Position numbers and translations under genes: made by a program. A stretch of DNA of 64,000 nt. It comes from Escherichia coli. Lineage in GTDB: Bacteria > Pseudomonadota > Gammaproteobacteria > Enterobacterales > Enterobacteriaceae. The DNA is taken from NCBI RefSeq assembly GCF_024223415.1, contig NZ_CP100500.1; one strand, written 5' to 3'. Positions 1,034 to 32,128 of this stretch are shown here, in pieces (position 1 is the stretch's first letter; every line of letters starts with the position of its first letter). The notes under the pieces were generated by a model. It saw nothing but the letters and a program-made list of their open reading frames with translations, made no database searches and was not told the origin of the DNA.

Positions 1034-1113
1034 CGTAAACTCCAGAATCCGTCTTCAAAGAGTGACGGCAAGGAAGAAGGAACCGGCACGGCGCGCAGCC
1101 ATGCCGGTGGATA

Positions 1114-2637: not shown

Positions 2638-3981
2638 ATGCATGTGCTTAACATTCTCTGGGTGGTATTCGGCATTGGTCTGATGCTGGTACTGAATTTG
2701 AAGTTCAAAATCAATTCAATGGTGGCTTTGTTGGTGGCGGCGCTGTCCGTCGGGATGCTGGCGGGCATGGATTTGATGTCGCTGCTGCACACCATGAAAG
2801 CGGGCTTCGGCAACACGCTGGGGGAACTGGCTATCATCGTGGTGTTCGGTGCGGTCATCGGTAAATTGATGGTCGACTCCGGCGCGGCTCACCAGATAGC
2901 GCATACGTTGCTGGCGCGTCTCGGTCTGCGCTATGTACAGCTGTCAGTGATTATCATCGGCCTGATTTTTGGTCTGGCGATGTTCTATGAAGTGGCCTTT
3001 ATCATGTTAGCGCCGCTGGTTATTGTTATTGCCGCCGAAGCTAAAATTCCGTTCCTGAAACTGGCGATCCCGGCAGTAGCAGCTGCCACTACCGCACATT
3101 CACTGTTCCCACCGCAGCCGGGTCCGGTGGCGCTGGTGAATGCTTATGGCGCAGATATGGGGATGGTTTATATCTATGGCGTACTGGTGACGATCCCAAG
3201 TGTAATCTGCGCAGGTCTGATCCTGCCGAAGTTCCTCGGCAATCTTGAGCGCCCAACGCCATCATTCCTGAAAGCAGATCAACCGGTAGATATGAACAAT
3301 CTGCCCTCTTTCGGCGTTTCGATTCTGGTGCCGCTGATCCCGGCGATCATTATGATCTCTACCACCATCGCCAATATCTGGCTGGTAAAAGATACCCCTG
3401 CCTGGGAAGTGGTTAACTTTATCGGTTCCTCGCCGATTGCAATGTTTATTGCGATGGTGGTTGCATTCGTACTCTTTGGCACCGCACGTGGTCATGACAT
3501 GCAATGGGTGATGAACGCTTTTGAAAGTGCGGTGAAAAGCATTGCAATGGTGATTCTGATCATCGGTGCGGGTGGCGTGCTGAAGCAAACTATCATCGAC
3601 ACCGGCATTGGCGACACCATCGGCATGTTGATGTCCCACGGCAATATCTCGCCCTACATTATGGCATGGCTGATCACTGTGCTAATTCGTCTGGCGACGG
3701 GTCAGGGTGTCGTTTCGGCGATGACCGCCGCCGGGATTATCAGTGCTGCAATCCTTGATCCAGCAACTGGTCAGCTGATTGGCGTGAATTCGGCGCTGCT
3801 GGTGCTGGCGACGGCTGCGGGTTCCAACACCCTCACCCACATTAATGATGCCTCATTCTGGCTGTTCAAAGGTTACTTTGACCTGTCAGTAAAAGACACG
3901 TTGAAAACCTGGGGACTGCTGGAGCTGGTCAACTCCGTGGTTGGGCTGATTATTGTGTTGATTATTAGCATGGTAGCGTAA
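2638..3981 (+). CDS. gntP: GntP-family gluconate/fructuronate permease
   Basis: 447-aa polytopic membrane protein ([19 protein letters not shown]...), divergent from uxuA as in E. coli. Confidence 0.85.
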
Positions 3982-14361: not shown

Positions 14362-15078
14362 ATGAAAAAGGCTAAAATACTTTCTGGCGTATTATTACTG
14401 TGCTTTTCGTCACCATTAATTTCTCAGGCTGCGACACTGGACGTACGTGGTGGATATCGTAGTGGAAGCCACGCCTATGAGACTCGACTCAAAGTCAGTG
14501 AGGGATGGCAAAATGGATGGTGGGCAAGTATGGAAAGTAATACCTGGAATACCATTCATGATAATAAAAAGGAAAATGCCGCACTCAATGATGTTCAGGT
14601 TGAAGTTAATTACGCGATTAAACTTGATGATCAATGGACGGTGCGCCCGGGAATGTTAACGCATTTTAGCAGCAACGGCACACGCTACGGACCCTACGTA
14701 AAACTGTCCTGGGACGCGACAAAAGATCTTAATTTTGGCATTCGCTATCGTTACGACTGGAAAGCTTACCGACAACAAGACTTATCCGGTGATATGTCTC
14801 GTGATAACGTTCATCGTTGGGATGGATATGTCACTTACCATATTAATAGTGATTTCACCTTCGCATGGCAAACGACGCTATACAGCAAACAGAACGATTA
14901 TCGCTATGCAAACCATAAGAAATGGGCGACGGAAAATGCATTTGTTCTACAATACCATATGACGCCCGATATTACGCCATACATAGAATATGACTACCTG
15001 GACCGTCAGGGTGTTTACAACGGCAGAGATAATTTATCGGAAAACAGTTATCGCATTGGTGTGTCATTTAAACTGTAG
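14362..15078 (+). CDS. nanC: N-acetylneuraminic acid outer-membrane channel
   Basis: MKKAKILSGVLLLCFSSPLISQA signal peptide, KdgM-family beta-barrel ending RIGVSFKL. Confidence 0.9.
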   Translation: MKKAKILSGVLLLCFSSPLISQAATLDVRGGYRSGSHAYETRLKVSEGWQNGWWASMESNTWNTIHDNKKENAALNDVQVEVNYAIKLDDQWTVRPGMLTHFSSNGTRYGPYVKLSWDATKDLNFGIRYRYDWKAYRQQDLSGDMSRDNVHRWDGYVTYHINSDFTFAWQTTLYSKQNDYRYANHKKWATENAFVLQYHMTPDITPYIEYDYLDRQGVYNGRDNLSENSYRIGVSFKL

Positions 15079-15097
15079 TAGACAGGAGACAGTCACA

Positions 15098-16204
15098 ATG
15101 AATAAAACAATAACGGCGCTTGCTATCATGATGGCTTCATTTGCCGCAAACGCGTCTGTATTACCGGAAACTCCTGTGCCATTTAAAAGTGGTACCGGAG
15201 CAATTGATAACGACACTGTCTACATTGGTTTAGGTAGCGCAGGTACGGCATGGTACAAGCTGGATACACAGGCCAAAGATAAAAAATGGACAGCGTTAGC
15301 TGCATTCCCTGGCGGACCAAGAGATCAAGCAACCTCTGCATTTATTGATGGCAATCTGTATGTGTTTGGCGGCATTGGCAAAAACAGCGAGGGCTTGACT
15401 CAGGTATTTAATGACGTACACAAATACAACCCCAAAACCAATAGCTGGGTTAAATTGATGTCGCACGCGCCGATGGGCATGGCGGGCCATGTGACTTTTG
15501 TACACAACGGCAAGGCTTATGTTACTGGCGGTGTTAACCAGAATATCTTCAATGGCTATTTTGAAGATCTCAACGAGGCTGGAAAAGATTCAACCGCTAT
15601 AGATAAAATCAACGCTCACTATTTTGACAAAAAAGCAGAAGATTATTTCTTCAATAAGTTTCTGTTGTCTTTTGATCCCTCAACACAGCAATGGAGTTAC
15701 GCTGGCGAATCTCCCTGGTACGGAACGGCTGGTGCGGCGGTTGTGAATAAAGGTGATAAAACCTGGCTTATTAATGGCGAAGCCAAACCAGGATTGCGAA
15801 CGGATGCCGTATTTGAACTTGATTTCACCGGCAATAATTTAAAATGGAATAAGCTTGCTCCCGTCTCATCACCAGATGGCGTCGCTGGCGGTTTTGCGGG
15901 GATAAGCAATGATTCTCTTATATTTGCCGGAGGGGCCGGATTCAAAGGTTCACGAGAAAATTACCAGAACGGTAAGAACTATGCGCATGAAGGCCTGAAA
16001 AAATCATATAGCACTGATATTCATCTTTGGCATAACGGGAAATGGGATAAATCGGGTGAATTATCGCAAGGTCGGGCCTACGGAGTATCATTGCCCTGGA
16101 ATAATAGTCTATTGATTATTGGCGGTGAAACTGCAGGCGGCAAAGCGGTGACGGATTCAGTTTTGATCTCTGTGAAGGATAATAAAGTCACAGTACAAAA
16201 CTAA
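15098..16204 (+). CDS. nanM: N-acetylneuraminate mutarotase (Kelch-repeat)
   Basis: The start is taken at ATG 15098 (MNKTITALAIMMASFAANA signal peptide) with GGAG-like RBS upstream. The ORF-track start at 14990 overlaps nanC and is rejected. Confidence 0.9.
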   Translation: MNKTITALAIMMASFAANASVLPETPVPFKSGTGAIDNDTVYIGLGSAGTAWYKLDTQAKDKKWTALAAFPGGPRDQATSAFIDGNLYVFGGIGKNSEGLTQVFNDVHKYNPKTNSWVKLMSHAPMGMAGHVTFVHNGKAYVTGGVNQNIFNGYFEDLNEAGKDSTAIDKINAHYFDKKAEDYFFNKFLLSFDPSTQQWSYAGESPWYGTAGAAVVNKGDKTWLINGEAKPGLRTDAVFELDFTGNNLKWNKLAPVSSPDGVAGGFAGISNDSLIFAGGAGFKGSRENYQNGKNYAHEGLKKSYSTDIHLWHNGKWDKSGELSQGRAYGVSLPWNNSLLIIGGETAGGKAVTDSVLISVKDNKVTVQN

Positions 16205-16268
16205 CGCTTCAGGGCCCCAGTAAAGGGGCCCTGCTATCAATTTGTCATTTCAATTACGCGAAATTTAT

Positions 16269-17249
16269 ATGAACGCAATAATATCGCCTGATTATTACTA
16301 TGTTCTTACCGTTGCTGGTCAGTCTAATGCCATGGCGTATGGCGAAGGACTGCCATTACCGGACAGGGAAGATGCGCCTCATCCCAGAATTAAACAATTA
16401 GCGAGATTTGCGCATACGCATCCCGGAGGCCCGTCATGTCACTTTAACGACATTATTCCACTGACTCACTGCCCACACGATGTTCAGGATATGCAGGGTT
16501 ATCACCATCCTCTGGCAACGAATCATCAAACACAGTACGGCACCGTTGGCCAGGCACTGCATATTGCACGGAAATTACTGCCCTTTATTCCTGATAACGC
16601 AGGGGTTCTCATCGTTCCGTGTTGCCGTGGCGGATCGGCTTTTACCGCGGGCAGCGAAGGGACATATTCAGAACGGCACGGAGCCAGCCATGATGCTTGT
16701 CGTTGGGGAACGGATACTCCGCTATACCAGGATTTAGTCAGCAGAACGCGAGCCGCATTGGCAAAAAATCCGCAGAACAAATTCCTCGGCGTATGCTGGA
16801 TGCAAGGCGAATTTGACTTAATGACCAGTGACTACGCGTCACACCCTCAACACTTTAATCATATGGTTGAAGCCTTTCGTAGGGATCTAAAACAATACCA
16901 TTCTCAGCTTAATAATATTACTGATGCGCCCTGGTTTTGCGGCGATACCACCTGGTACTGGAAAGAAAATTTCCCTCATGCGTATGAAGCTATTTATGGC
17001 AATTACCAAAATAATGTTTTAGCCAATATTATTTTCGTCGACTTCCAGCAACAAGGTGAAAGAGGACTGACGAACGCGCCTGATGAAGACCCGGACGATT
17101 TAAGCACGGGATATTACGGTTCAGCGTACCGGTCACCGGAGAACTGGACGACGGCACTGAGAAGCAGCCATTTCAGCGCGGCAGCCCGTCGGGGGATTAT
17201 TTCTGACAGGTTTGTAGAAGCAATTTTGCAGTTTTGGCGCGAAAAGTGA
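16269..17249 (+). CDS. nanS: 9-O-acetyl-N-acetylneuraminate esterase
   Basis: ORF 16242..17249, probable start at MNAIISPDYYYVLTVAGQSNAMAYGEG, downstream of nanM. The exact start is uncertain. Confidence 0.85.
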   Translation: MNAIISPDYYYVLTVAGQSNAMAYGEGLPLPDREDAPHPRIKQLARFAHTHPGGPSCHFNDIIPLTHCPHDVQDMQGYHHPLATNHQTQYGTVGQALHIARKLLPFIPDNAGVLIVPCCRGGSAFTAGSEGTYSERHGASHDACRWGTDTPLYQDLVSRTRAALAKNPQNKFLGVCWMQGEFDLMTSDYASHPQHFNHMVEAFRRDLKQYHSQLNNITDAPWFCGDTTWYWKENFPHAYEAIYGNYQNNVLANIIFVDFQQQGERGLTNAPDEDPDDLSTGYYGSAYRSPENWTTALRSSHFSAAARRGIISDRFVEAILQFWREK

Positions 17250-17302
17250 GCGTTCATTAATTTGATTTATTCGCATCCATCAACGCTTTTAACTCCTCCG
17301 GC

Positions 17303-17978
17303 GTGCGGCACTATAACGACTTCCACAACAAGGAGCCATTTTCTTATACCACTTTCAGTGACCATCCGCTTATGCCACCACCCTCTACGCAACTGTTTGC
17401 AGAGCACCTTCCCACCGAGTGGATACAGCACTTCCTGACGCTTTCTGCTCATGCGACCGTTCGTCGTCTTAACCTGAGCGTGGATGGCGAAGCGGGGATG
17501 AACCTGCTGGCGCCCGCAGCGCTGTCACCCAGGCGCGTCAGCGCGTGGGGGCCGCCCCGGTGGAATGGCTCTTCCGCCAGACCGCACAGACATGGGGCGC
17601 GGAACGTTACCTGAAGGATGACTGGCACGGCCTGCAACTTTTTGCCATTGATGGCGCACAGTTCAGGACACCTGATGAACCCGAGCTGCGTGAATATTAT
17701 GGCTCTGCCAACACATCCACTGAGCGGCAGAGCGCCTACCCCGTCATGCGTCTGGTGGCGTTAATGAATCTGGGAATCACATTCTACTGAATGCCATGAC
17801 CGCGCCTACCAGCGGAGCGATACGGCGTGAGGCAACAAAAGCGGCGTCAGAGATCAGCTTTAAGTTCGCGTTCCAGTTTATCGTGACAGAAATGATAGTG
17901 CTGGGAAACACGGCGTCACCGGGGACTATCCCGAAACGACTGGAGCATCTGCGGGGGCTCTGGAAGTGGTGTTCATAA
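17303..17978 (+). pseudogene. IS4-family transposase remnant (fragmented across three frames, internally deleted)
   Basis: Fragments …WLFRQTAQTWGAERYLKDDWHGLQLFAIDGAQFRTPDEPE… and …ASPGTIPKRLEHL… resemble N- and C-terminal parts of IS4-type transposase as recalled. No intact ORF or terminal inverted repeats were identified. Confidence 0.55.
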
Positions 17979-18702
17979 CAAAACGCCCCCGACCATCAAG
18001 GGCGAGGGCGGTTAAGATATCAAAAACCCGTTATCCTGTGAAACACAGTGCCGCCCCGATTAAGTGAACGGCATTGTGTTTCTGAGGGACCTTAATTTTC
18101 CCTGATTCTCTGACGTTCCTTACCATTGATATTTCCTTCATTCCTCACCAGAGAAATAAAAAATCACTATACTCATCAAAATATGAGATTACCTTTATTC
18201 AGGTGATCACCTTACTATTTTTTACGGAAAATAAATTATGAATAACAAGAAATCACTGACAAACCACCTGTAAAATGTCAATCATTTTAGTTCAATTGCC
18301 TTTGTCATGATTATCTTTTTATCGTCCTGACGATACTATTAACAATTGCAATTTTTATACCCCTCCTGAACAAATAGAAAAGAACTAATATATTCGTTTA
18401 TAATTCTGGTAATCCTGGCATCATACGTTTAAAACTTAAGATATTTATTTTATCATCATCATGGTTCCAGAGACTATTGGTCAGCTGGAAATGCCAGCCT
18501 TTTCGTGCCAGCTATATTTGTCCAGTGTGTCACCCCATCCAAAAATCATCCACATCCTGACGTTACGTTAGATATAGAGAAAACAGGTTGTACTGTGCAA
18601 TATGCAAACCGCATAAGCGAATATAATTTCTAAGTTGATATTGTCTGGCTGTTGGGAGCTAAGCAATATAAATATCGCCAGTTGCCAGAACGGTTATATA
18701 GA

Positions 18703-18732
18703 CCAGGAGCGTTTCGGCTCCTGGCCTGTTTT
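18703..18732. terminator. GC-rich hairpin (ccaggagc-loop-gctcctgg) immediately downstream of the UvrD-like gene
   Basis: Perfect 8-bp stem, T-run on the plus strand and A/T-rich tail on the minus strand. Possible bidirectional terminator closing the four-gene operon. Confidence 0.4.
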
Positions 18733-18742
18733 GGACATATTA

Positions 18743-20857
18743 TCAGTCAGCCACTAATAGCGGACTAGGGACACCAGATGATGAAACAAACAGCCCTTTT
18801 ACGGCACGGGTTGCAGCCACATGCAGTAACGCGCGCTCATTAAATAATGCATCACGCTGTTCAACGGGATCATCGGATGCTAATGCTTTTATTTCCGGCA
18901 CAACGCCTTCGTTAATCCCCACCAGGAACACATACTGGAACTCAAGCCCTTTAATACGGTGCATCGTTGCAACCCGCACGCCAGGGCGTGCATCGCTGTC
19001 ACCGCTATCATTGCCTAAATTAAATGTCTCAATTCCGGCGTCATTCAGTGCTGATGCGTAGCGGTCACAAGCATGTTTAGTACGCGCAGTAATGCAGATA
19101 TCCTGAGAACGAACCTGATTCGCCAGCAATGCCTGAATTTGCTTGACGAGCGTTGCAGCCTCTTCTTTGAAATCTGCCGCATGCGTAATCATGGGCTTTT
19201 CCCCGTGCAGTAATGACAAATAATCATTACTGGTATCCGCTTCGCCATCGAGGTTATCAACCTTCACACCAGTTAACAGCCCAACAGCAAATTGACGCGT
19301 CTCTTCTGTGGTCCGATAGTTAATCTTCAATTTTTTACTGCGACGACCACGGACGTTAATACCACACTGACCAAGAACGACCTTATTGCGATAAATACGC
19401 TGATGCCCATCCCCGACAATAAACAGATCGTTGGGCGACTCGGGAACCAGGCTGCGAATAAGAGTAAATGCCGGGGCACCGATATCTTGAGCTTCATCGA
19501 CCACAATACTGCTATAAGGTAGTTGGACCTGCTTTTCTTTAAACAGAACAATAGCCTCATGCATGGCATCGCCCATTTCGCGCAGTTTGGCACGCGCCAT
19601 TTGTGCTCTGAATTCTTCAAAGACTGGCCAGATTTTCGCCCGTTGAATACGGGATAACGCTGTACCACGTCCAACCCGGCTGACTTTGAGGTATTCCTCC
19701 CGGGTGTAAACCGCATTTGGCTGGACAACGCGTTGCCACTCTTCAGCATAGAAATTATCAGGTAGCCCCAGTTCGGCAGGTGCCTGCTGCAAGGCATAGT
19801 TCCAGCATTTGCGTCGCCCTTCATCGCTGTCGTATACCACGCGGAAATCATAACCGTGGCGTTTTAGTTGGTCGCTCATCCAGGCATCAATGTTAACGAC
19901 GTCAATACGCGCCATCTCTTCTCGCGTACACAACCGCTGGAGATTAGCGCGAATATCTGCCGCCAGGTTACGCGTAAAGGTCGTGAAAAGTACCTTCTTA
20001 CCGGGTTTATCTGCCAGACGCTGAGATAACCACCGCGCACGGTGCATCGCAACAACCGTTTTCCCTGTACCTGCACCGCCCAGTACTCGTACCGGACCAT
20101 TAGCGGGCGACTCCACCAGTTTTCGCTGGCTCGGATGCAGAAATACACGCCATTTTTCTAAAGGCGCATTAAGCATCTGCAACAGCTCCTGTTCATTTTC
20201 AACGACATGGAAGCGACGTTTACTTCGTTCAATCGCCTCCATAAAGTCGTTGGTATCAACAGGCTCATCACGATGATCGTTAAACTCTTCCAGCACTTCC
20301 TGGTAATCCAGCCCTTCTGCCAGCCAGTGCAGAGGTTCCCAGGCTTCTGCTGGCATTATGCTTTCAAGTTGGTTAAGCCCGGCTTCATCGGTAAGCGCCA
20401 TCACCTGATCAATAAAGACAGGCGGCACGCCCAGGGCCAGAATCTGTTCCGCGCTGTAAGCCGCGAAGAGTTTCGGTTTATCAACCACCGCTTCCGGTGC
20501 CGGTTTGATATAGCTAATATCAATAACCTGAATCGCGCCGGTAACTGGGTGAATCGAACAATCATGCCGCCGCGCCCAGTCGTATGCTTCGTCGTGTTTA
20601 TCCACCCACATCAGCATATACAGGGCACCCTGTTCAGGTTTCAGAACAATGCCGCGATAAGTTTGATCGATTCGCACCGAATGGACATTTTTACTGCGCG
20701 CATCGTGGATCTTTTCATAGTTAAGTCCATTACTGGTCGGGTCCTGACGGAATTTGGAGATGAATTCCTGCACCTTTTTTTGCTGTGCTTTTGGGATCCG
20801 CGCGAATGCGCCCAGAAAACCATCAGAAAGTGCCACCTTGGGCGTTTGCACCGTCAT
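18743..20857 (-). CDS. UvrD/PcrA-like superfamily-1 helicase with ~250-aa N-terminal extension (last gene of four-gene defence operon)
   Basis: Walker A VLGGAGTGKTVVAMHR, Walker B IVVDEAQDI, C-terminal motif VATMHRIKGLEFQYVFLVG. The start ATG overlaps the stop of the upstream 2113-aa gene (ATGA). Confidence 0.75.
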   Translation of the reverse strand: MTVQTPKVALSDGFLGAFARIPKAQQKKVQEFISKFRQDPTSNGLNYEKIHDARSKNVHSVRIDQTYRGIVLKPEQGALYMLMWVDKHDEAYDWARRHDCSIHPVTGAIQVIDISYIKPAPEAVVDKPKLFAAYSAEQILALGVPPVFIDQVMALTDEAGLNQLESIMPAEAWEPLHWLAEGLDYQEVLEEFNDHRDEPVDTNDFMEAIERSKRRFHVVENEQELLQMLNAPLEKWRVFLHPSQRKLVESPANGPVRVLGGAGTGKTVVAMHRARWLSQRLADKPGKKVLFTTFTRNLAADIRANLQRLCTREEMARIDVVNIDAWMSDQLKRHGYDFRVVYDSDEGRRKCWNYALQQAPAELGLPDNFYAEEWQRVVQPNAVYTREEYLKVSRVGRGTALSRIQRAKIWPVFEEFRAQMARAKLREMGDAMHEAIVLFKEKQVQLPYSSIVVDEAQDIGAPAFTLIRSLVPESPNDLFIVGDGHQRIYRNKVVLGQCGINVRGRRSKKLKINYRTTEETRQFAVGLLTGVKVDNLDGEADTSNDYLSLLHGEKPMITHAADFKEEAATLVKQIQALLANQVRSQDICITARTKHACDRYASALNDAGIETFNLGNDSGDSDARPGVRVATMHRIKGLEFQYVFLVGINEGVVPEIKALASDDPVEQRDALFNERALLHVAATRAVKGLFVSSSGVPSPLLVAD

Positions 20858-23800
20858 TTGTCACCTCCGGACAGATGTTGCAATGTATTTTCGTCAATTG
20901 GCCCGAATGCAACGTGCCAACCTCTGGTTGTGAATAATGGAATAAATTCTTGATTATCAATAATCAATGCCCATTTTTGTGATGGCCAGGCGAGATCGGC
21001 TTCCGCAATAATTTCACCTTCATCATTTTGCAATTCGTAGCCGAGAGTCGGCGCAGAGAGAGAATGAGACTGAAGCAACGCGATCTCTTCAGCGCTTAAT
21101 AAGCCAAACTCAATAATCTCAGCCCAACTCTCATCAGTCTCTGGTACTGCCTCTGGCGTTGCCGAAACTTTAGTGTCAACGCTTTCCTGCGGTAAATGCA
21201 CGGCTTTACGGCTGGTAAAGGTCATATCCGGCAGGAACTGTAACAGGTTTACCAGTCGCCAGAAGCCATTGAGTCCCGCTTCATAACCGTCATCCTGCGT
21301 ATAGCGATCGTCAAAACAGATATGCAAACGCAGCCAGCTGCGCATTTGTGCGACGCTGGTCGTCGGTTTAATGGCTTGTTGTGGCAACACCGAAGCCAGC
21401 TCAATAAATTGCTGCGATGAGTTACAGCTATCGAGTAAACCACCAAAGACAAACGGTTCGTCTGGCAAAAGCTCTGCTAGCCGCCAGGCTGGCGCGTTTT
21501 CCTGCATTTCATAGGCATACTTTTGTTTCGTTCCCGCGTCCTGTGACTTCTTCACATCCAACCACACCCAGGCATGTGCAGCAGCCATTCTCTGCCATAA
21601 CTGCGTTCTTCCGCCCGGATCGGCGAGATAATCCAGCAGCAGTGCAAAACTGTTGCGTTCCCGGAACGACGCTTCAAGGGCCGCAAAGTTGGTATCGTGA
21701 AACAGGTTATAAAACTTAGGCTGTTTCATATCCGGGTTATGCCCAAGTCCCAGGACATCCTGAACATGTTTAAGCCCAGGCTCTTTGAGATCGGCCCACG
21801 TGACTGTCCACACCCAGAAATTACCGCTATCCCGAATCGCCTGGCGTTTTTGCACATCCTCTGCGACGCTATTTTTGTGGAACGCAAAGCCATCAAGGAA
21901 AATAGCCACCGGTTTAATGACATCAGACTGCATAAGCGGATATAGCACGTAATCCGGGCGACAAGGGATCCCCACCGCCTCTTTAGCGCCTAAATCCACC
22001 TGAGCTTTAAGATGCCAGCTCATCATCGGTTCGCTGCGGGTGTTAATAATCCACCCAGCGCCCTGATGCGCGTAACTGCGACTGACAATCAGGTTTTTAT
22101 TTTCTTGCAGGCAGCTAATAAACCGTTTTTCCAGCTCACTGCCCATCATGGCTTCGAGGGAAATGTTTTTGATGGAATCAATTACCCGTATCGAATCTCT
22201 TGCCTGCAAAATTTTCGCCAGCAAGAGACGCGCCTGATCGCGGGAGACATACTTCATGCGCCCACGGTCACGGTAAGCGTAAACGCAACGATAACAACCA
22301 TCTTTATGCGTATCATTGTTGCAACTGCATTCCACTATTGCCTGATAGGCCAGTTCAAGTAATTTCAGCAAATTGTCGGGAGTGCGCATCAGCTCTTTAA
22401 GAGAACCAGTTCCCCCCGGGACGGTATCGTAAATCACCAGATACTGCCTCCAGGATTCGCCTTCATTTTCCGGCTCGCGGTACACAACGCCTTTCAGGTG
22501 ATCGACATTCCCCTTGAAGTAATGTTTAAGGCCGAGCTGGATCGCCGCCCCAAGAGAAGCCTCCACGACACGGTCATTACTGTAACTGCTTACCGGGAGC
22601 AGAATACGCAACGCTTCTGACTCCAGCTGGCGATAGAGATAGAGATAATCTTCGAACTTCGCCTTTTCCGGTTCCGTGCGATATTTGCAGCTCAAATCAT
22701 GACGTGGTTCATGATCGCGAGGACGCTGCACCATGCCGCACCCGAGGCAAACTTTAAACCCGGTTCGCTTCTTCGCTTCTCCGGCAATCATCAACTCATT
22801 GGCATCATCCGCCATTTTGCCGAAGTTGATATCCCGCAGGGTGACTTTGCTTAAAAATTCAAAACCAAACGGAACTTCGCCTTCCTCAATCGCGTATGCC
22901 GCCGATACATCTTCTTTTTCGAAACTAACCAATAGCTGACGCTGGAAGAAAGCAGGTTCACGGCTGTCGCTATCGTCGCTGATCTGGCTATCACGTGCGC
23001 TGGCGCGGGCATAAACCTGGCGAAGTTTCAGCAGCGTGGTTTTTTGTCCGGCATCGGCCCACCCCGGTGTGCCACATTTCGGGCAATATTTATGCTGGTC
23101 GCCCGTCTGGTCGATATTTTCGCTGTAGTTACAGTGGCTACAGATACGCCAGTTCTCCGGCTCAGAGACCTTCAGGTCTATCTGCTCAATTTCAACTTTA
23201 TGCCCACCGGCATAGAAATTATTCAGCGGAGCCAGCTCAGCCAGCGCCGTTGATGCCGGGCGTTCATATTCGAAAGTGGTGTTTTGATATTCACGCGCTT
23301 CCCCGCCTTCTTTACGCCGCCAGAGCACAGAACGTAACGTAATACCGGCTTCCGGGAAGGCGTAGTTAGGCAGCAGACCTTCATCCGTGAGGAAATTCAG
23401 CGTTTGCTTATTGTTGATTTGATTGACCAGCGCCATCAGCGCCTGCCGTTCTGAAGTCAGTTCGCGCATATCGCTGTCAAAGTTTTGATCGCGCGGCGCG
23501 TTCTCCAGTTTATCGATGCTGCGCTTGAGTTTATCGATGCGTGAGCGCAAAGATTTGCGATCTTCCACCAGCAGTTTTAACGCTTCTTCGATACGCTGCA
23601 CCAGCGAACGTTGCCCTGGCGCGCCCTGAAGATAAGACAACAGCTGTTGGCGAGTTTCTGCGGCAAGATCGGGGAAGATCGCCGTAAATTGTGCAGCAAT
23701 CTCCGCATGATGCTGTTCGATATATCGCAGTAAGTTATACGGAAAACCCGATTTACGCCCGAACTCCAGCTCATCCAGCATCTGTTTGACGTTTTTACAG

Positions 23801-26800
23801 ATAGCGGATTCTGGTACACCGGTTTTCACCCAGTTATCCATACAAAAAGCTGCCAGCTGGCGTTCGAGAATAGCCGTTGCATTGAGGAAGACGCCAGGAG
23901 CCTGCACCTGGCCCTGCATCATCTCCAGCGGTTCTTCAAAGAAAAACTGATCGTGCGGGTTCCCTTCTGCCACGGTAATGTTTAACGCGTTACCATCTTT
24001 ACGACCGGCGCGACCAATACGCTGCAAGTAGTTGGCCTGAGCAGGTGGGACAGAACAGAGTAAAACGGTGGAAAGATCGCCAACGTCAATACCCATCTCC
24101 AGCGTCGGTGTTGCCGACAACAGGTTGATATTCCACGGTTGGTTGCCGCGGTAGAACGATTTTTCGGTGGCTTCGCGATCTTCACGGCTAAGCAGCCCCG
24201 TGTGTTCTGCGCCCTGTACGCGCGCGATGTCCATGTTCTCCCAACGCCAGGTCGCCGTATTGTCGACTTCCTGGTAACGACCTTCACAACGTAAAGAGAG
24301 ACAAGGCGCATTACGCCACTGCCAGCCTTGATCGGCCGGAGCCCGGACAACCTCACGGCAACATGAACAATTAAGCTGAACGACGTCACGGCTCACCACC
24401 AGCGCCGAAGGCACCAGTCCCCAGGCTTCACGCCCTTTGGTGTCAAAATCTTTTACTACTCCGGCTATTTTCAACGCCGTAAACAGGCGTCGTAACACTG
24501 TTTCCGCAACGCTACTGATAAACAGATTATTGCCGTTACTCAGCGTGCGATTGATCCAATGCTGATACCAACTGGGGTTAGACTTCGCGCCAATCAGGCG
24601 ATGGAAACCATTAATTTTTTCAAACGACGCATAAGCCGGTTTACGCGTTTTCGGACCGATAGAAGGCATATAGCGCGAGGTACGCTCTTTTTGCGTCATC
24701 ATAAAGGTCGTGCCATCACGGCGATAACTTTCGAACGCCGGATGCATAACGGCCCCGGCCTGGCGTTGATACCAGATAACCCCCAGCGCCAGGTGCGCGA
24801 CCTGCTCGACGCTCACACCGGACATCTCATCACCCAGCTCTTCACAAAGCTGTTGATGCAGGGCGGTAATTGCCGGATTAAAGCGTTCTTTATCCACTCC
24901 GGCAACGGCATAACCGGTGGCTTCCAGCGTACGTCCGATACGCGCGCGCAGGGTGAATTCGCTGTACACCTCCCAGTCGAGGCGCAGGGAAACCAGCTCC
25001 GGCAGATCGGAGTTCTCCGCCAGTTTGCCTTCATTTTTCAGCATCTGATAATCATTCAGCCACTGCATATTTGGTGCGATGAAGTTCGCTGCAAAATGAG
25101 CATCGTCCGGTGAACGTTCACGCGTTTGTTGGCAAACACGCGCCGCGAACGCATCCAGCGGTAATGTCTCTTTTTCGCCAAGAACACTGGCGATTTGCCC
25201 ACGAATCATCAGCGGCCAGGTACGGGCAGTAAAGAAGCTGGCACGATGCGCGGCGTCTTGTACCGAGTCAGAAAACGTAATCAGCTTTTTATGTTCGTTG
25301 AACTGGCTGCCATAAAGCTGGTGAATCATCACCGCCGACAAACTGGCAGCCCGTGACCCCAGGATCGAAATCCCCTGTTTGCTGTTGCAGTACGGGCATT
25401 CATTAGCAAACTCCAGCTCGTCCTTACGCTCTTTGAGCATATCCGGGATCAGTACCTGCAACAGTTCCGTATGACCGCAATGTCCACACTGGACGCTGGA
25501 CTGTCGGTTCAGTTTCAGACAGGTAGGACACAGTTTCTGGTGTGCGCCACTGACCGCTTTTTCGTTGTTATCCGGGAAAGCAAGGACGATGGAGCGTCCT
25601 TTTTCAAAGAACTGGCGATAAATGCCGTCGAGGTCTGTTTCCAGCTGAACGCTTTGCCCATGACGCAGGCTGGCCCAGCCAGTTGCGTGGCAGTCACGGC
25701 AGTGGATAACCGGCAAATAGTGTTCGCGATCTTCCACCGCCACATCATCGGCAAACACCAGTCGGGGCGTTTTCGCCACGCTGGCGACCAGACGACGCAT
25801 CTCACGAAGCCACAACTGGGAGCGCAGTTGCACAAACGGCAGCACCGGACGCGCTTTCTTCGCCTGGAGACGTTTTTGCCGATCGTGTTCCGTTTCCGGT
25901 ACTTCGAGACGTGCCTGTGCGATCAGCGCCAGAATGCTTTGCAGCACGCGTCGGGCATGGTCGGCGCTTTCTGCCAGCATGACCTGGAGATTTTCCAGAC
26001 ACTCTCGTTCAGAGAGGATCCCGCCTTGCAGATCATGGAGTAAGACATGCATCACGCTGTGGCGGCGTAACAGTGACCCCAGCGCAATACGCTTTTCACG
26101 CCCGTCGTCGCTCTCCAGATCGTCCGGGAGTTGCAAGTCGCTGTCGGGGAACCACAAAGGGATTTGCCCGTTAAGATACGCTACCGGGGTAGCGTAACTC
26201 TGCGGGTCCAGGGCCGAAGCGACCTCCGGCCCCGGATACTGACTGTACGCAATGGCGTAATCCTGCAAGTACTCCGCTGCCGTGTAGCGATCTTCGCGAA
26301 TAACGGCGTCATCGGTAAACGGCTGGTCAAAGATTGTTTTTGCGTAATCGAGCAGTTGCCCCAGCTCGTCGCCGACGGTAGCTGATGTCCCGACGCAGGC
26401 GAATCGTTGGTTATCTACACCTATGTGATGCTTCAGACGTCGCACCAGACAGGCCAGATCCGACCCTTGCGCGCCATCAAACGTATGCAATTCATCCACG
26501 ACCAGGTAACGCAATGAACCGGGCTGGTTGTAACGCCAGAGCGGCTGATCGCCAGGGCGCATCAGCAGGTAGTCGAGCATTTTGTAGTTGGTCAACAGGA
26601 TGTCCGGCGGGCTTTCGCGCAGCGTGTGCTTGCAGGTAATGACCTTTTCTGCCGACATTTTTTTGCTGGGTTCGATTTCGCTGTCGCCGACAAACAGGCC
26701 GACGGTCACCTTGCCATGCAGTTGTGTATCGCTGGCGATGGTTTTGGCGAAACGGCTGGCCTGATCGGTTGCCAGGGCGTTCATCGGGTAGATGATAATC

Positions 26801-27195
26801 GCTTTAACCCCGGCTTGTGACGCGCCCGCGCAGTGGTTGAGCAGCGGGAACATAAAGCATTCTGTTTTACCGGAGCCGGTACCGGTAGCAACCAGCGTCG
26901 GCTGTGGCGCGTCGCTTCCCAGACGCTGAAATGCCCGGGCCTGATGCGCGTGCGGCGGGAACGGCAGCGTCAGATTAGGGAAGAAATTCAGCGGTAAGTC
27001 ACTTTTACGAAACGGCAACTGGGCGGAAAGGTATGGTCCTTTCAGCAGCGTTTCGGGCTGGGCCAGAAATTGCTCCAGCATTGAGACATTATCGTTATTC
27101 TCACCGTTAAACAGCGGACTGTTTAGCGGGAACGCCGCCCGTAAAAAGGCGGCAACGCTGTCGGCGACCTGCCGACTGACAACGGATGGCAGCAT
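20854..27195 (-). CDS. 2113-aa DEAD/DEAH-box helicase with Cys-rich DUF1998-like region (DrmA+DrmB-like or DruE-like giant helicase)
   Basis: Motif I ATGTGSGKTECF, motif II VVDELHTFDG, motif VI QRIGRAGRKDG about 800 residues later, then CxxC clusters (CSHCNYS…CPKCG, CLGCG, CSCNND…CYRCV). C-terminal PDYVLYP…IFLDGFAFH patch might be a nuclease-like fold. Confidence 0.7.
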   Translation of the reverse strand: MLPSVVSRQVADSVAAFLRAAFPLNSPLFNGENNDNVSMLEQFLAQPETLLKGPYLSAQLPFRKSDLPLNFFPNLTLPFPPHAHQARAFQRLGSDAPQPTLVATGTGSGKTECFMFPLLNHCAGASQAGVKAIIIYPMNALATDQASRFAKTIASDTQLHGKVTVGLFVGDSEIEPSKKMSAEKVITCKHTLRESPPDILLTNYKMLDYLLMRPGDQPLWRYNQPGSLRYLVVDELHTFDGAQGSDLACLVRRLKHHIGVDNQRFACVGTSATVGDELGQLLDYAKTIFDQPFTDDAVIREDRYTAAEYLQDYAIAYSQYPGPEVASALDPQSYATPVAYLNGQIPLWFPDSDLQLPDDLESDDGREKRIALGSLLRRHSVMHVLLHDLQGGILSERECLENLQVMLAESADHARRVLQSILALIAQARLEVPETEHDRQKRLQAKKARPVLPFVQLRSQLWLREMRRLVASVAKTPRLVFADDVAVEDREHYLPVIHCRDCHATGWASLRHGQSVQLETDLDGIYRQFFEKGRSIVLAFPDNNEKAVSGAHQKLCPTCLKLNRQSSVQCGHCGHTELLQVLIPDMLKERKDELEFANECPYCNSKQGISILGSRAASLSAVMIHQLYGSQFNEHKKLITFSDSVQDAAHRASFFTARTWPLMIRGQIASVLGEKETLPLDAFAARVCQQTRERSPDDAHFAANFIAPNMQWLNDYQMLKNEGKLAENSDLPELVSLRLDWEVYSEFTLRARIGRTLEATGYAVAGVDKERFNPAITALHQQLCEELGDEMSGVSVEQVAHLALGVIWYQRQAGAVMHPAFESYRRDGTTFMMTQKERTSRYMPSIGPKTRKPAYASFEKINGFHRLIGAKSNPSWYQHWINRTLSNGNNLFISSVAETVLRRLFTALKIAGVVKDFDTKGREAWGLVPSALVVSRDVVQLNCSCCREVVRAPADQGWQWRNAPCLSLRCEGRYQEVDNTATWRWENMDIARVQGAEHTGLLSREDREATEKSFYRGNQPWNINLLSATPTLEMGIDVGDLSTVLLCSVPPAQANYLQRIGRAGRKDGNALNITVAEGNPHDQFFFEEPLEMMQGQVQAPGVFLNATAILERQLAAFCMDNWVKTGVPESAICKNVKQMLDELEFGRKSGFPYNLLRYIEQHHAEIAAQFTAIFPDLAAETRQQLLSYLQGAPGQRSLVQRIEEALKLLVEDRKSLRSRIDKLKRSIDKLENAPRDQNFDSDMRELTSERQALMALVNQINNKQTLNFLTDEGLLPNYAFPEAGITLRSVLWRRKEGGEAREYQNTTFEYERPASTALAELAPLNNFYAGGHKVEIEQIDLKVSEPENWRICSHCNYSENIDQTGDQHKYCPKCGTPGWADAGQKTTLLKLRQVYARASARDSQISDDSDSREPAFFQRQLLVSFEKEDVSAAYAIEEGEVPFGFEFLSKVTLRDINFGKMADDANELMIAGEAKKRTGFKVCLGCGMVQRPRDHEPRHDLSCKYRTEPEKAKFEDYLYLYRQLESEALRILLPVSSYSNDRVVEASLGAAIQLGLKHYFKGNVDHLKGVVYREPENEGESWRQYLVIYDTVPGGTGSLKELMRTPDNLLKLLELAYQAIVECSCNNDTHKDGCYRCVYAYRDRGRMKYVSRDQARLLLAKILQARDSIRVIDSIKNISLEAMMGSELEKRFISCLQENKNLIVSRSYAHQGAGWIINTRSEPMMSWHLKAQVDLGAKEAVGIPCRPDYVLYPLMQSDVIKPVAIFLDGFAFHKNSVAEDVQKRQAIRDSGNFWVWTVTWADLKEPGLKHVQDVLGLGHNPDMKQPKFYNLFHDTNFAALEASFRERNSFALLLDYLADPGGRTQLWQRMAAAHAWVWLDVKKSQDAGTKQKYAYEMQENAPAWRLAELLPDEPFVFGGLLDSCNSSQQFIELASVLPQQAIKPTTSVAQMRSWLRLHICFDDRYTQDDGYEAGLNGFWRLVNLLQFLPDMTFTSRKAVHLPQESVDTKVSATPEAVPETDESWAEIIEFGLLSAEEIALLQSHSLSAPTLGYELQNDEGEIIAEADLAWPSQKWALIIDNQEFIPLFTTRGWHVAFGPIDENTLQHLSGGDK

Positions 27196-30100
27196 CAGGC
27201 GTTCTCCTTATCTTGTGCAAAGAACGCCCAGGCCACTTTGTAGTCGTCTTCGCGATCTGGCTTGATAAACGGAGCCTGCCAGGTGACGGTGCGGCGCTCG
27301 CCTTCGTCGCTGCGGGTATAGTCATCAAAGGTGACGCTGACGGTACCGGTTTTCAGATGTTTGACATCATCCCAGCCGATGGCTTGATCGGTGCAGTCAC
27401 CGCCGGTCCACTCCGGGCTGTCGACGTTAAAGACAAAGCTGTTTTTCAGATCAGCTTTACGGGCGGTACGCGGCAGACCGACGCCCACCAGCCCTTTGCT
27501 TGGGGTAAAGATGATGCGGCCGTTTTGGTCGTACCAGGTGTCCGCTTCGTACTGGCGCATCACCGGGAACTGTACACGGTAAATGGTAAGCAGCTCTTCG
27601 AGAGTTAACCCCAGCGCCTGTGCCACCAGCACGTCGATTTCCACCAGCGCCTGACGACGACTGTAGTCGGAGCGTAAGGCGCAGTTACGCTGCCACTCTG
27701 GGGTCAGATTGGTGAAGAAATCTTGTGGCAGCAGCGGGAGATCGCGGCTCCAACGCTGGGTGTTGAAGTCTGGGGTGTAGCAGGATTGCCAGAGATCGGC
27801 GTAATCTTTCGTTAACACATTCAAAGCTAATGCTCTTGAGTTTGCACTCATTAGCTCAACATAAGGGAAGCCACGCAATGTTGATTCATAAACATCCGCC
27901 CGTCCTGTTGTTTTCAAATAAAAATCAGCCACTATTGAATGGCAAAATGCAGAGAAACTTAGCAGGTTTATTGGCTCTCTAAATGTTGTTGAGAGTACAG
28001 GGTGTATATGAGCAACGTGCTTTGGAACTATGCTGGATATCATCGAGCGTTCTGATGATGCCCCAAACATTCTCCGATTAACAAAACGATAATAATCCGT
28101 CACCTTCCTCGGCTCGTCTTCATCCTGCTCTTTCCACGAAACCCGTGGGGTGCGCTTTGCATACTCCTGTGCATCACATGCCGGAATGTAGTTAGTTCGC
28201 GGCAGGTAATCGTCGGGCAGGGTTAATAAATCAAGGCAATCATAATGGCTATTTGCCTCACAGAGAGCTCTTGGTGTCTTATTGAAAGGATTACCCACGA
28301 AGAAATGGGGACCAGACAATACCCATTGAGAAGCATCTTTTGGATACATTGTTTTACGCTCGATAGTGCCATCAATTTGCTGATTTGTTTCATGCCACAT
28401 TTCCAGAGAAAAATACTGGCCTTGCAAATCGCCTAATCGCTTCGGCTGATTGGCAAATTTTTCCAATACCGCGACAAGTTGCTCTGCGTGCAAAGCGGGA
28501 AGACGAGCCTGTAATGCTGGCGTGTCGGGTTCATCATACAAACGAGCAAATAAAGCTAGCTGCTCTTTCGTGACACGAATAAGCCTGGATTTATGACCTT
28601 TAGTATTCCATCGGCTATAGTAAACATCTTTTATATAACCTTCTTCCTTAATGCCACCAACCAATCCATCACCTGAATGCTCAAAACTCTCATCAAGAGT
28701 TGAAGGAATAAAAAGATTATTAATATTAATAAACTCCACGTCGTTCGATTTGGTCATAGAGTAAACATGTGTCCCAAATTTCATTCGACCGTGATCATTT
28801 GTTCCAACAAATAGAGAAAACTCATTTTGATATTGGCAATGTAGACGTAACCTTGGATAGATCTCTTCTCTGAAGAGCCCTCCCTTAGGATCGTCATATA
28901 CCCCCTCTGGGTGAACAAATCCTGCCACGCCTTTCTCTGCCCCCAGACGCCAGGCCTGAGGCAGGAAGCATTTATACAAGTTGGTCTGCACCCCGCGCAG
29001 TACCGGGTAGTTTTGCTGCGCATTGAGGAAGTTTTGCATCCCTTCACAGCCTTCATACTCGCTGCGCCAGGCCGCTTCCAGCGCCGGGATCTGGTTAAAG
29101 GTATCAATACGCAACGTTGCCAGCTTCGATGCACTCAGCTTACGCAGCACAAATTCCGGCTCGTAATCACCCAGCACGCCCGCTTCCTGCCATTCCACTT
29201 TCAGCCACGGCGGGTTTCCGAGCATCAGGTCAAAACCGCCGCGCTCGGCAAACAGGTCGCAGAACTCCAGATCCCAGTGGAAGAAACGGTGCTGCTTTCT
29301 CAGGGCATCGACAATCGCCAGACGCGGCAAATGGCGGAACAGCACATCGGTTTTCAGACGACCAGCAACGGAAAACAGCGAAGACTCTTCTCGCAGCAGG
29401 CCTTCTTCGGCAAACAGATCGCCAGTAGTGCGCTCCGCAACTTCAGTGACTTTTTCCGTAATCACAATCCCGTCGAGCAGGGTTTCAATCTCAAACAACC
29501 AGGTACCGCGATCCGGTAACTCATCGGCTTTGTCGATCGGCCAGAACCACAGCGCGCACCAGTAGTCCATCACCCAACGCAGCTTCTGGTAGGCGCTGTT
29601 ATCTTCAAGACGACCGCTAAAGGTTTCATCTTTACTGCTCAGCGAAGAACGCGTCTGCTCGCTGTTTTCTGCCGGCCACACCGGGTAGCTGTCGGCGGTT
29701 TTCAGACGTTCTGCTTTAAGTTGCTGGCGATAGGTGTTCCACAGTGCTTCCACCTTTTCGCTGATACGCTGCACATCAGCAATCTCATGCCCGGCAAAGC
29801 TTTTAATAAACTCTTTGCGCCAGCTGTCCAGCGCTTTGAAGTCATCCGGATAACGCTGCTTAACAGTTTTATCGCTGTAGTTAGCCATACCGCCGTCGGG
29901 CAGCAGGAAGTGGAAAATCTGCGTCTCTTCACGCGGCGTGTTCATCGCCAGTTCGACCGGCTCGCTGTTAAGCCAGCTAGGATCTTTGGCTTTTTTGTAG
30001 GTCAGTTCGCTCTTGTTGAACACCTGACGGCGCGCGCCCACCAGCGAGTTACCGCAGTGCAGCTGGTAACCAAACCACGGTACAAAGGCATCGCCACTGA

Positions 30101-32126
30101 TGGCGTTCAGCCACAGCGACACTTCCGCCAGCTCCACCGCCACCGGGTTTAAGTCCACGCCGAAAACATTGTTATCGGCAATGTACATTTTCACCCGCTG
30201 TAACTCCTGGGTGTAACGATCCTGCGGAATACGGCGACCTTCCGCCTGCTGCTTGTGGAACAGATACGCTTCCGCCAGCTGGTTGATGGCTTCGTTAAGG
30301 AACGCCGCGCTGCCCATCGCCGGTTCGCACACAGTGAGGTTTAAGATGGCGTCGGCTTTGGCGTGCGGATCGCTAATGGGATCAATCTGCTCCTTAAACA
30401 GTTCTTTCAGGGCATATTTAACCAGTGAGCGGGTCAGCACTTCCGGGGTGTAATAAGAGGCAGATTTCTCACGGTCGCGCCCGGCCATACGGTAGATAAA
30501 GCTGCCTTTGCGGTGAATGCGCAGACTGCCGTCTTTCTCGTAGACCTTCTCGTCTTCGTGGTATTTGCCAATCTCATCCTTACTGACGAAGTAACCTGTC
30601 TCCAGCTCGTTAAACTCTTCCCCGGCTTTCTTCACCTCGTAGAGATCTTCGCTGGCGAAGAATCCACGATAGGAGAGCAGCGCCTCATACACCGCACCCA
30701 ACTGGTTGATACCCAACTGGCGATAAGAAATACGTCCGCGGCGGTTAAAGCGCCCTTTGGCCGGGCGGCTTAACGACATCGCCTGGATAATCTGTTGCAG
30801 GGTTTCGTTACGGAATACCACGCGGTTAAGAATGCGCGTGTTGTTGGCATCAAACAGATGACTTTCCAGACGCGGGACGCTGAACTGATGACTATGGATG
30901 GTGATCCGGTCGCCGCTCTCCAGGTCACTCTGCATTTTCACGCCGCCGTTGTAGCCTTCGCGCACCAGTTTAAACAGCATATTCAGGCTGTCGTGGAAGT
31001 AGCGCCCGTTGCGATCTTCTTCGCTGGTCAGCGGGATCATCTCCAGATCGCGCAACGTTTCCAGACTGTAACCTTGCAGATAGGTTTTGGCTGTCATTGG
31101 CGCATAACCCAGCTCCGGGCGCGCTTCAATGTAGAACAGGAACAGCAGGCGGTACATGTAACGCAGACATTCGCGGCTCAGTTCATCCGGGTCCACCGCA
31201 CGGTTACCGGTATAGTTTGCCAGGCCACGGTCGATCAGATAATGCATCGCTTCGTTGCCCAGCAACTCAATGCTTTCGCGCAGGGCATATTTCAGATCTT
31301 CCGAAACACCAAACGCATGTTTGTGCGAATTGTCATCCAGCGAGTCAAGATAAGGTGCCCCACTGCCCGGCAGCAGAGAATCTTTATGTAACAACACCGC
31401 AGTCGCTTTCAGCGTATCCGTTTCACGACGGCTTAAAATCTCTTCAAAATCAAAACGTAGCAGACGGTTTTGCGCCCACTTAGTACGGTCCAGCAGCAAT
31501 AGCTGACGGTTACCGAGCAGCAGCACAAAACGCGGCGGTTCATTTTGGGTGAAGACCGCCGTAGAGAGCAGATCCTGCCAGCTGCGATATTCACCGTTGG
31601 CTTTTTTGCGCAGGCTGTCGCGCTTATGTTTGTCGGTATCCGCCGGGAATTGCGCGGTCAGTAAGGAGAGCGCCAGCGGATCCAGCGTTCCTTCTTCCTG
31701 ATCGTGTGCTTCAACAATCCACAGCCACGGGCTACCGTCAGTGCTGTTGTAACGCGCCAGTACCGGCAGCGGTGTATCGTCATCCAGCATTTGGATCTGT
31801 GGCGTAATTTCGTAGCCCAGCGCCTTTAACAATGGCTGCCAGCGATTACGTTGATCGGCCAGACGCTGCGGGATCTGACGCTGTTTTTCGTGCTCGGCAA
31901 GTTTGCGGAAAAACTCAGTCGCCAGACTGTTAAACTGGTTCCACGGAGCGCGGTATCCCGGCTCCACGTCTTTGCCCTGTTCACGAGCGGCACGCTCCGC
32001 TTCACGCGCTGCATTTTCCTTGGCTATCCAGGGTTCCAGCACATCGCGGATATCACTGGTGAAAACCTCACCCAAATAGTGGTTAGAGTAAAATTCGTTT
32101 TCGTTATTAATACCGACCAGCGCCAT
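27195..32126 (-). CDS. 1643-aa N6-adenine DNA methyltransferase (gamma-class; DrmMI/PglX-like)
   Basis: SAM-binding motif I …CEPAMGSAAFL… and catalytic motif IV …LGNPPWLKVEW… (NPPW). Its stop overlaps the start of the 2113-aa gene. Confidence 0.8.
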   Translation of the reverse strand: MALVGINNENEFYSNHYLGEVFTSDIRDVLEPWIAKENAAREAERAAREQGKDVEPGYRAPWNQFNSLATEFFRKLAEHEKQRQIPQRLADQRNRWQPLLKALGYEITPQIQMLDDDTPLPVLARYNSTDGSPWLWIVEAHDQEEGTLDPLALSLLTAQFPADTDKHKRDSLRKKANGEYRSWQDLLSTAVFTQNEPPRFVLLLGNRQLLLLDRTKWAQNRLLRFDFEEILSRRETDTLKATAVLLHKDSLLPGSGAPYLDSLDDNSHKHAFGVSEDLKYALRESIELLGNEAMHYLIDRGLANYTGNRAVDPDELSRECLRYMYRLLFLFYIEARPELGYAPMTAKTYLQGYSLETLRDLEMIPLTSEEDRNGRYFHDSLNMLFKLVREGYNGGVKMQSDLESGDRITIHSHQFSVPRLESHLFDANNTRILNRVVFRNETLQQIIQAMSLSRPAKGRFNRRGRISYRQLGINQLGAVYEALLSYRGFFASEDLYEVKKAGEEFNELETGYFVSKDEIGKYHEDEKVYEKDGSLRIHRKGSFIYRMAGRDREKSASYYTPEVLTRSLVKYALKELFKEQIDPISDPHAKADAILNLTVCEPAMGSAAFLNEAINQLAEAYLFHKQQAEGRRIPQDRYTQELQRVKMYIADNNVFGVDLNPVAVELAEVSLWLNAISGDAFVPWFGYQLHCGNSLVGARRQVFNKSELTYKKAKDPSWLNSEPVELAMNTPREETQIFHFLLPDGGMANYSDKTVKQRYPDDFKALDSWRKEFIKSFAGHEIADVQRISEKVEALWNTYRQQLKAERLKTADSYPVWPAENSEQTRSSLSSKDETFSGRLEDNSAYQKLRWVMDYWCALWFWPIDKADELPDRGTWLFEIETLLDGIVITEKVTEVAERTTGDLFAEEGLLREESSLFSVAGRLKTDVLFRHLPRLAIVDALRKQHRFFHWDLEFCDLFAERGGFDLMLGNPPWLKVEWQEAGVLGDYEPEFVLRKLSASKLATLRIDTFNQIPALEAAWRSEYEGCEGMQNFLNAQQNYPVLRGVQTNLYKCFLPQAWRLGAEKGVAGFVHPEGVYDDPKGGLFREEIYPRLRLHCQYQNEFSLFVGTNDHGRMKFGTHVYSMTKSNDVEFININNLFIPSTLDESFEHSGDGLVGGIKEEGYIKDVYYSRWNTKGHKSRLIRVTKEQLALFARLYDEPDTPALQARLPALHAEQLVAVLEKFANQPKRLGDLQGQYFSLEMWHETNQQIDGTIERKTMYPKDASQWVLSGPHFFVGNPFNKTPRALCEANSHYDCLDLLTLPDDYLPRTNYIPACDAQEYAKRTPRVSWKEQDEDEPRKVTDYYRFVNRRMFGASSERSMISSIVPKHVAHIHPVLSTTFREPINLLSFSAFCHSIVADFYLKTTGRADVYESTLRGFPYVELMSANSRALALNVLTKDYADLWQSCYTPDFNTQRWSRDLPLLPQDFFTNLTPEWQRNCALRSDYSRRQALVEIDVLVAQALGLTLEELLTIYRVQFPVMRQYEADTWYDQNGRIIFTPSKGLVGVGLPRTARKADLKNSFVFNVDSPEWTGGDCTDQAIGWDDVKHLKTGTVSVTFDDYTRSDEGERRTVTWQAPFIKPDREDDYKVAWAFFAQDKENA

Positions 32127-32128
32127 GA

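Follow-up and report, generated by a model that had tools for sequence, protein, structure and literature searches.

The stretch of Escherichia coli DNA analyzed here, referred to as the window, comprises 64,000 nucleotides, and its plus strand reads uxuA, the fim operon, nanC, nanM, and nanS, after which a variable region extends to leuX (Table 1). The leuX region has been published as E. coli defense hotspot #37, the most heavily occupied among 41 hotspots (PMC10121019, PMC12707154). The nanC-nanM-nanS segment of K-12 is 98.8% identical to the window at the DNA level, as far as window position 17252. In three related strains, RefSeq labels nanS as a partial pseudogene (L001 5242-5586, L004 4020-4586, and L005 4242-4586; L numbers denote comparison loci), which may be an annotation artefact. 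The RefSeq annotation of the near-identical strain NCTC10444 lists, after nanS, a frameshifted "transposase domain-containing protein" and then a minus-strand operon encoding a UvrD-like helicase, a 2113-aa DEAD/DEAH helicase, a 1643-aa methyltransferase, and another helicase. Beyond this operon it lists a DEAD/DEAH-box helicase gene and a STY4851/ECs_5259-family gene, which we take to be DruE and DruH of Druantia III, and it also contains a type II Zorya system (zorA2, zorB2, and zorE). In the window, the four-gene operon (18743-34987, minus strand) encodes a DrmD-like SNF2 helicase (952 aa), a type IIG/DrmMI-like methyltransferase (1643 aa), a DruE-like 2113-aa helicase, the C-terminus of which matches a ZorE-type HNH model, and the UvrD/GajB-like helicase (704 aa). 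With these mixed affinities, the operon gives the impression of a DISARM-like variant that includes a UvrD helicase. The K-12 gene yjhR was considered as a remnant of the 704-aa helicase and rejected, there being no similarity between the two.

Table 1 Features at the nanS-proximal edge of the variable region and at its far side (window coordinates)
Feature	Position	Strand	Basis or remark
nanS (sialate O-acetylesterase)	16269-17249	+	Uninterrupted 326-codon ORF, collinear with K-12; last of the core genes, with the variable region following
55-bp flank downstream of nanS	17250-17304		Shared with genomes carrying other cargo
3'-terminal 48 bp of an HNH-endonuclease gene	17257-17304	-	Full gene in strain elppa4
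Decayed insertion sequence (IS), assigned to the ISZ' type (IS4 family)	17304-18076 (773 bp)	+	DNA alignment, tblastn, K-12 pseudogene match
Former transposase start codon, now ATA (was ATG)	17346-17348	+	Alignment
19-bp deletion just after the former start codon	17352/17353	+	Alignment
87-bp in-frame deletion site (IS 216-302, aa 45-73), between two copies of GTTCGCCG	17458-17459	+	Alignment
2-bp frameshifting insertion	17510-17511	+	Alignments; private to the window allele, absent from EcPNK004
488-bp deletion site (IS 663-1150, aa 194-355)	17818-17819	+	Alignment
Right terminal inverted repeat GATTAAGTGAACGGCATTG, intact	18058-18076	+	Comparison with the termini of the intact IS and K-12 IS4
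Presumed right-hand copy of the 11-bp target-site duplication, TGTTTCTGAGG	18077-18087		Inferred from 10-11-bp duplications in intact relatives
AT-rich spacer separating the relic from the helicase operon's 3' end	18077-18742 (666 bp)		GC 35.6% versus 47.4% for the whole window
Scar of a deleted 651-bp UDG-family gene	18231-18244	+	Comparison with an allele keeping the gene
3' relic of an MBL-fold gene (58 codons and stop)	18457-18633	+	tblastn, aa 364-421, 98% identity
GC-rich hairpin, candidate terminator, between the convergent MBL relic and UvrD-like gene	18703-18724		Consensus scan only
UvrD/GajB-like helicase gene, 704 aa	18743-20857	-	Last gene of the four-gene minus-strand defense operon
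Second, diverged nanM copy, two fragments (nanC-nanM junction, 46 bp; nanM internal, 245 bp)	48748-49035	+	
tRNA-Leu(CAA) gene leuX	53329-53413		End of the variable region

A first-pass annotation had described three short frames at 17303-17978, immediately after nanS, as the N- and C-terminal parts of an IS4-type transposase with the middle missing. All three frames exist (17303-17614, 17545-17790, and 17796-17978), but a fourth frame of the same gene, 17966-18067, has to be added, and the remnant, although situated downstream of nanS, begins 55 bp past its stop codon and runs to the end of the right inverted repeat, so that its last 33 codons and this repeat had been overlooked. RefSeq gives the region corresponding to 17372-18067 the label "transposase domain-containing protein, frameshifted." When the four fragments were compared with Pfam, the sole match was Nterm_IS4, which remained sub-threshold (E 0.014), and since Pfam is nearly blind on such fragments, homology was shown by way of an intact relative. 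This relative, reached through a search in which the central portion of a longer plasmid copy served as the query, is a chromosomal element in the gnd-ugd region of E. coli 720632 (L007 2355-3784). It measures 1430 bp, has inverted repeats CAATGCCGATCAGTTAAGG and CAATGCCGTTCACTTAAGC and an 11-bp target duplication, CAGCTAGACTG, and contains an intact ORF for a 445-aa transposase (WP_058055589.1) with full DDE/YREK motifs. The protein scored 255.5 bits with the NCBIfam model transpos_IS4_1 (cut-off 115), and 100.5 and 80.6 bits with the Pfam models Nterm_IS4 and DDE_Tnp_1, respectively. A tblastn comparison of this transposase with the region returned four collinear pieces in three different frames, covering aa 10-109 (E 2e-27), aa 80-178 (90% identity, E 1e-58), aa 357-409 (E 2e-22), and aa 398-445 (E 3e-17). 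At the DNA level, the relic aligns to positions 42-90, 110-215, 303-662, and 1151-1430 of the intact element, with 93.6% identity over 771 aligned bases (54% of the element covered). A similarity of this extent, with E values from 1e-58 to 3e-17, is far beyond chance and upholds the description as the remnant of an IS4-type transposase; by these comparisons, the relic's element belongs to the IS4 subgroup of the IS4 family.

The lesions listed in Table 1 are accompanied by four frameshifts (one +2 and three -1). At least one of the internal deletions, that of 87 bp, arose by slippage, between the two GTTCGCCG copies. The first catalytic aspartate, D137, is kept, but D214 and E318, together with Y311, R314, and K325 of the Y-2-R-3-E-6-K motif, were lost within the 488-bp deletion, leaving the DDE triad incomplete; the missing middle part thus corresponds to the catalytic residues 194-355, as the first-pass annotation had it. 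Because D214 and E318/YREK are deleted, the window copy is a relic of an IS4-family member and not a working member. A 21-bp difference at IS positions 1167-1187 is of another kind: these bases are missing from the relic, and since they are missing from the ColV-plasmid copy as well, the difference may represent an insertion in the 720632 reference rather than a deletion in the relic. IS positions 1-41, including the whole left inverted repeat, are absent. Lacking one terminus as well as two catalytic residues out of three, the relic can neither make transposase nor be mobilized as a normal element. At the other end, homology both to the plasmid copy and to the 720632 locus ends at 18076. Members of the IS4 family have terminal inverted repeats of about 18-19 bp at both ends and direct target-site duplications of about 10-13 bp. 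Terminal repeats and target-site duplications had been proposed as a check on the element: the right repeat was found, but there is no left repeat, and the 11-bp sequence TGTTTCTGAGG adjoining the right end occurs only once in the window, a search for a partner having returned none.

The left end of the relic coincides with the edge of the variable region. Among the matches listed, the 55-bp flank matched at 96-100% in genomes that have HNH'/SBD-REase/McrBC cargo instead. Such genomes, carrying an HNH fragment, a phosphorothioate-sensing restriction endonuclease, and McrBC, agree with the window as far as 17304, where the similarity ends; in L005, homology likewise stops at 17304. The island boundary had therefore been placed correctly, and the nanS-side breakpoint of the defense block is 17304/17305. 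At this point IS position 42 meets a truncated HNH-endonuclease gene, which is full length (651 bp) in elppa4 (L025), with one nucleotide shared between the two. Because both partners are truncated and the IS terminus itself is missing, the left joint is, judging from the sequences, the product of deletion or illegitimate recombination, and not of transposition or an IS-mediated adjacent deletion. This bears on the view that the IS itself made the island boundary, either as part of a composite transposon that moved the defense block or through an IS-mediated deletion next to nanS. The relic does lie right at the point from which the window departs from the simpler genomes, and IS elements cause adjacent deletions, a known capacity that counts for such an origin. 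However, after transposition or a deletion mediated by an IS, the joint still carries the IS terminus, and here precisely this terminus (41 bp, including the left repeat) is gone. A composite transposon was rejected, as neither a second ISZ-like copy nor a partner of the target duplication was found in the 64-kb window, and at its other end the block is closed by a nanM fragment, not by an IS. We consider it very improbable, therefore, that the IS made the boundary.

Two other arrangements of this region were observed. K-12 (L023) departs from the window 3 bp past the nanS stop codon, and just beyond nanS it has a fragment of a phosphorothioate-sensing restriction endonuclease gene (L023 37269-37515, 89.5% identical to window 49128-49375), and for this reason K-12 is a further deletion derivative of the same region. 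In Escherichia sp. E1V33, uxuA directly adjoins the end of the defense operon and the whole fim-nan segment is absent (L009 10022-12659 versus window 3-2639).

Positions 17250-18750 were compared by megablast with 5426 complete E. coli genomes. Of these, 446 covered at least 80% of the query; in thousands, the match was confined to its middle portion (about 93% identity) and lay at the adhE-tdk locus. ATCC 8739 no longer has the relic, an IS1-associated rearrangement having removed it. A second island allele, in EcPNK004 (L004), shares the 41-bp truncation and all three of the larger internal deletions (19, 87, and 488 bp); its small frameshifts are different, and it has a private 12-bp deletion. 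The two alleles diverge by 7.3% in the 55-bp flank, 7.8% in the IS relic, and about 6-7% (5.8-6.3%) in the spacer, versus 0.7-2.6% in nanC, nanM, nanS, the UvrD-like gene, and the DEAD-box gene. Large lesions common to alleles that are ~7% apart in non-coding DNA indicate that the relic is old and neutral, that it arose once, and that it drifts like unconstrained DNA. The earlier suggestion of an old insertion or deletion event agrees with these shared lesions and with the loss of the left IS end and its fusion to the truncated HNH gene. When one genome per species was scanned for relatives of the 704-aa helicase, 14 loci were obtained, 13 outside Escherichia (including Siccibacter, Citrobacter, Enterobacter, Leclercia, Serratia, Yersinia, Aeromonas, and Vibrio) and one in Escherichia sp. 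E1V33; the relatives in Siccibacter, Citrobacter, Mangrovibacter, Enterobacter, Leclercia, Serratia, and Yersinia are 90-94% identical. No ISZ-like sequence was found within 6 kb of the UvrD homologue in E1V33 or in 12 of the 13 non-Escherichia loci, the thirteenth (L019) ending inside the UvrD gene, so that its downstream side falls outside this count. As the operon relatives checked in other genera are without ISZ-like sequence, the relic is not part of the defense system. None of the 14 helicase loci has a complete IS at the same site, and the state before decay was not recovered.

It is also very improbable that the relic has been co-opted, as a truncated N-terminal DNA-binding protein (the 103-codon GTG frame 17303-17614) or as a promoter or terminator for its neighbors: although the first frame retains part of the Nterm_IS4 domain (E 0.014) and promoter-like sites are enriched in 17200-18800 (11 found versus 2.3 expected), the two alleles differ in how this frame is interrupted, divergence of the relic (7.8%) keeps pace with that of the non-coding DNA around it, as against 0.7-2.6% in genes, there is no Rfam match, and the gene that it could have driven, that of the UDG family, is deleted in the window. 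The excess of promoter-like sites fits the AT-richness of the region, such matches being expected in AT-rich DNA. It should be added that a residual promoter, terminator, or small-peptide role would be excluded through the apparent lack of sequence constraint only.

The DNA between the relic and the operon had been described as ~760 bp of ORF-free, AT-rich sequence before the operon. It is indeed AT-rich (Table 1), but about 98 bp of that length still belong to the IS, and since the operon lies on the minus strand, the spacer is located beyond its stop codon, that is, 3' of the operon. Nor is the spacer featureless, as it holds the relics of two genes. The first, a UDG-family gene, was deleted between two AATCAT(G/T)AATA microhomologies, leaving only ATGAAT and the nine final sense codons with their stop codon. 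The gene (216 aa; L004 5974-6624), which is convergent with the helicase operon, is whole in 93 complete E. coli genomes, and another 40, ATCC 8739 among them, keep part of it. Its product is called "uracil-DNA glycosylase family protein" in some RefSeq records; the Pfam model UDG matched below the cut-off (E 0.003), and there was no match to the PADLOC models. The second relic is the 3' end of an MBL-fold gene, the intact form of which (421 aa; L009 8225-9490) occurs in Escherichia sp. E1V33. The E1V33 protein matched Pfam Lactamase_B with E 0.002 and gave weak PADLOC matches to PDC-M48B (6e-12), LmuA (1e-11), and an RT-associated MBL, and the lost gene may have been a defense effector. Membership of the two genes in the helicase operon was rejected, as they are absent beside the homologous operon in other genera, and they are treated as neighbors of the operon. 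The consensus scan that marked the candidate terminator found no enrichment of terminator-like sites over shuffles, and an Rfam scan of 17000-19000 at E<=1 returned only a meaningless snoRNA match.

Taken together, positions 17304-18076 are very probably a dead ISZ'-type remnant of the IS4 family, functionless and neutrally drifting, that does nothing but mark the nanS-proximal edge of the defense block. IS4-family elements transpose by a DDE cut-and-paste mechanism. The 1430-bp element would have transposed into DNA 161 bp upstream of the UDG-family gene, which stood beside the helicase/methyltransferase defense operon in the leuX island, and the insertion would have produced an 11-bp target duplication. 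Afterwards, the left 41 bp were lost by deletion or illegitimate recombination, which fused IS position 42 to the end of the HNH gene, and the element gathered the start codon loss, the 19-, 87-, and 488-bp internal deletions, and the four frameshifts.

A second nan copy lies on the far side of the block. Compared to the simpler arrangement nanS - HNH' - restriction endonuclease (L005), window positions 17305-49034 (31.7 kb) replace 83 bp, and the far end of this stretch is formed by the second nanM fragments, which are 93-95% identical to nanM of L005. The defense block proper (17305-48747, 31.4 kb), with the DISARM-like operon, Druantia III, and Zorya II, is thereby bracketed by diverged direct nan repeats of ~2.2 kb (nanC end, nanM, nanS, and 55-bp flank), of which the left one (15068-17304) is intact and the right one has decayed to 291 bp in the window; the two copies are 85-94% identical. 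In elppa4, more of the second copy survives (L025 5361-6658): nanM is represented by 525 bp and nanS by its final 130 bp, and the 55-bp flank and a complete HNH gene are also present. The losses from this copy differ between the window and elppa4. These repeats suggest either a homology-assisted insertion or an old duplication. We infer that the block arrived, with its HNH'/IS' joint already formed, by recombination through nan/fim homology on one side, and that the redundant right-hand nan copy decayed after this arrival; an internal duplication could also be the origin of the bracketing repeats. More tentatively, in a reading that is less likely right than wrong, the left joint of the relic might be one of the two illegitimate joints of a nan-bracketed block that entered hotspot #37 at leuX through nan homology, by homology-facilitated or Campbell-type recombination without an integrase or transposase. 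If so, the block could be lost again by recombination between the repeats, and defense islands would have a route of turnover that needs no mobile element.

By itself, the relic matters little, as decayed IS copies are common in E. coli islands; it is ordinary and without detectable function, and its worth is that of a historical marker. As a landmark it fixes the nanS-side breakpoint at 17304/17305 and indicates a joint made by deletion rather than by transposition, and the lesions common to diverged alleles mark this joint as old and of a single origin. For annotators there is a warning in the adjoining spacer, since this "empty" AT-rich DNA is a graveyard of two accessory genes and not regulatory DNA of the operon. 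The relic is already known, in that RefSeq annotates it as a frameshifted transposase pseudogene and the ISZ' type is known from K-12. We found no literature on the window relic itself, only the listing of ISZ'/insZ and descriptions of leuX hotspot #37.

The closest known relatives of the relic are elements at other loci. The 720632 element is complete with both repeats, and its right inverted repeat is identical to that of the window relic, which shares 93.6% of the 771 bases it has kept but is without a left end. IS4 itself (insG) of K-12, the founding member of the family, is more distant: InsG and the 720632 transposase agree in domain order and can be aligned at D137, D214, and the YREK motif, but because the two transposases are only 38% identical, the 720632/ISZ-type element is an IS species distinct from IS4, within the IS4 subgroup. 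The left ends of IS4 (L023 3091-4516) and of the ISZ-type element (L007 2355-3784) share 33 of their first 35 bases, so that terminal sequence is conserved far better than protein. K-12 also has a pseudogene between adhE and tdk, annotated as a frameshifted IS4-family transposase, that is 92.8% identical to the relic over 46% of the query, which amounts to all shared IS parts (90.9-94.0% per segment). Isoforms in ISfinder usually share about 90% or more DNA identity, and by this measure the relic is of the ISZ' (insZ) type. The adhE-tdk relic is ISZ'/insZ in the list of Archer et al. (PMC3032704), and a K-12-type ISZ' match is present in 3821 of the 5426 complete E. coli genomes, mostly at adhE-tdk only. 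Like the window relic, ISZ'/insZ (ychG) is frameshifted and internally deleted, but it sits at another locus, decayed independently with a different internal deletion, and still has its two inverted repeats and a target duplication of 10 bp, CCCTTCTGGG. An ISZ-like copy downstream of etsC on ColV-type plasmids, also found on hundreds of Escherichia, Salmonella, and Klebsiella plasmids, lies between etsC and a gene pair encoding a hypothetical protein and a UvrD-helicase-domain protein (L003 2781-6361), possibly another defense module. This plasmid copy is 86-88% identical to the window relic and, at about 1.4 kb, nearly full length; it has frameshifts and an internal stop, and unlike the window relic, it has kept both ends and an 11-bp duplication, CCGGCATAGCG.
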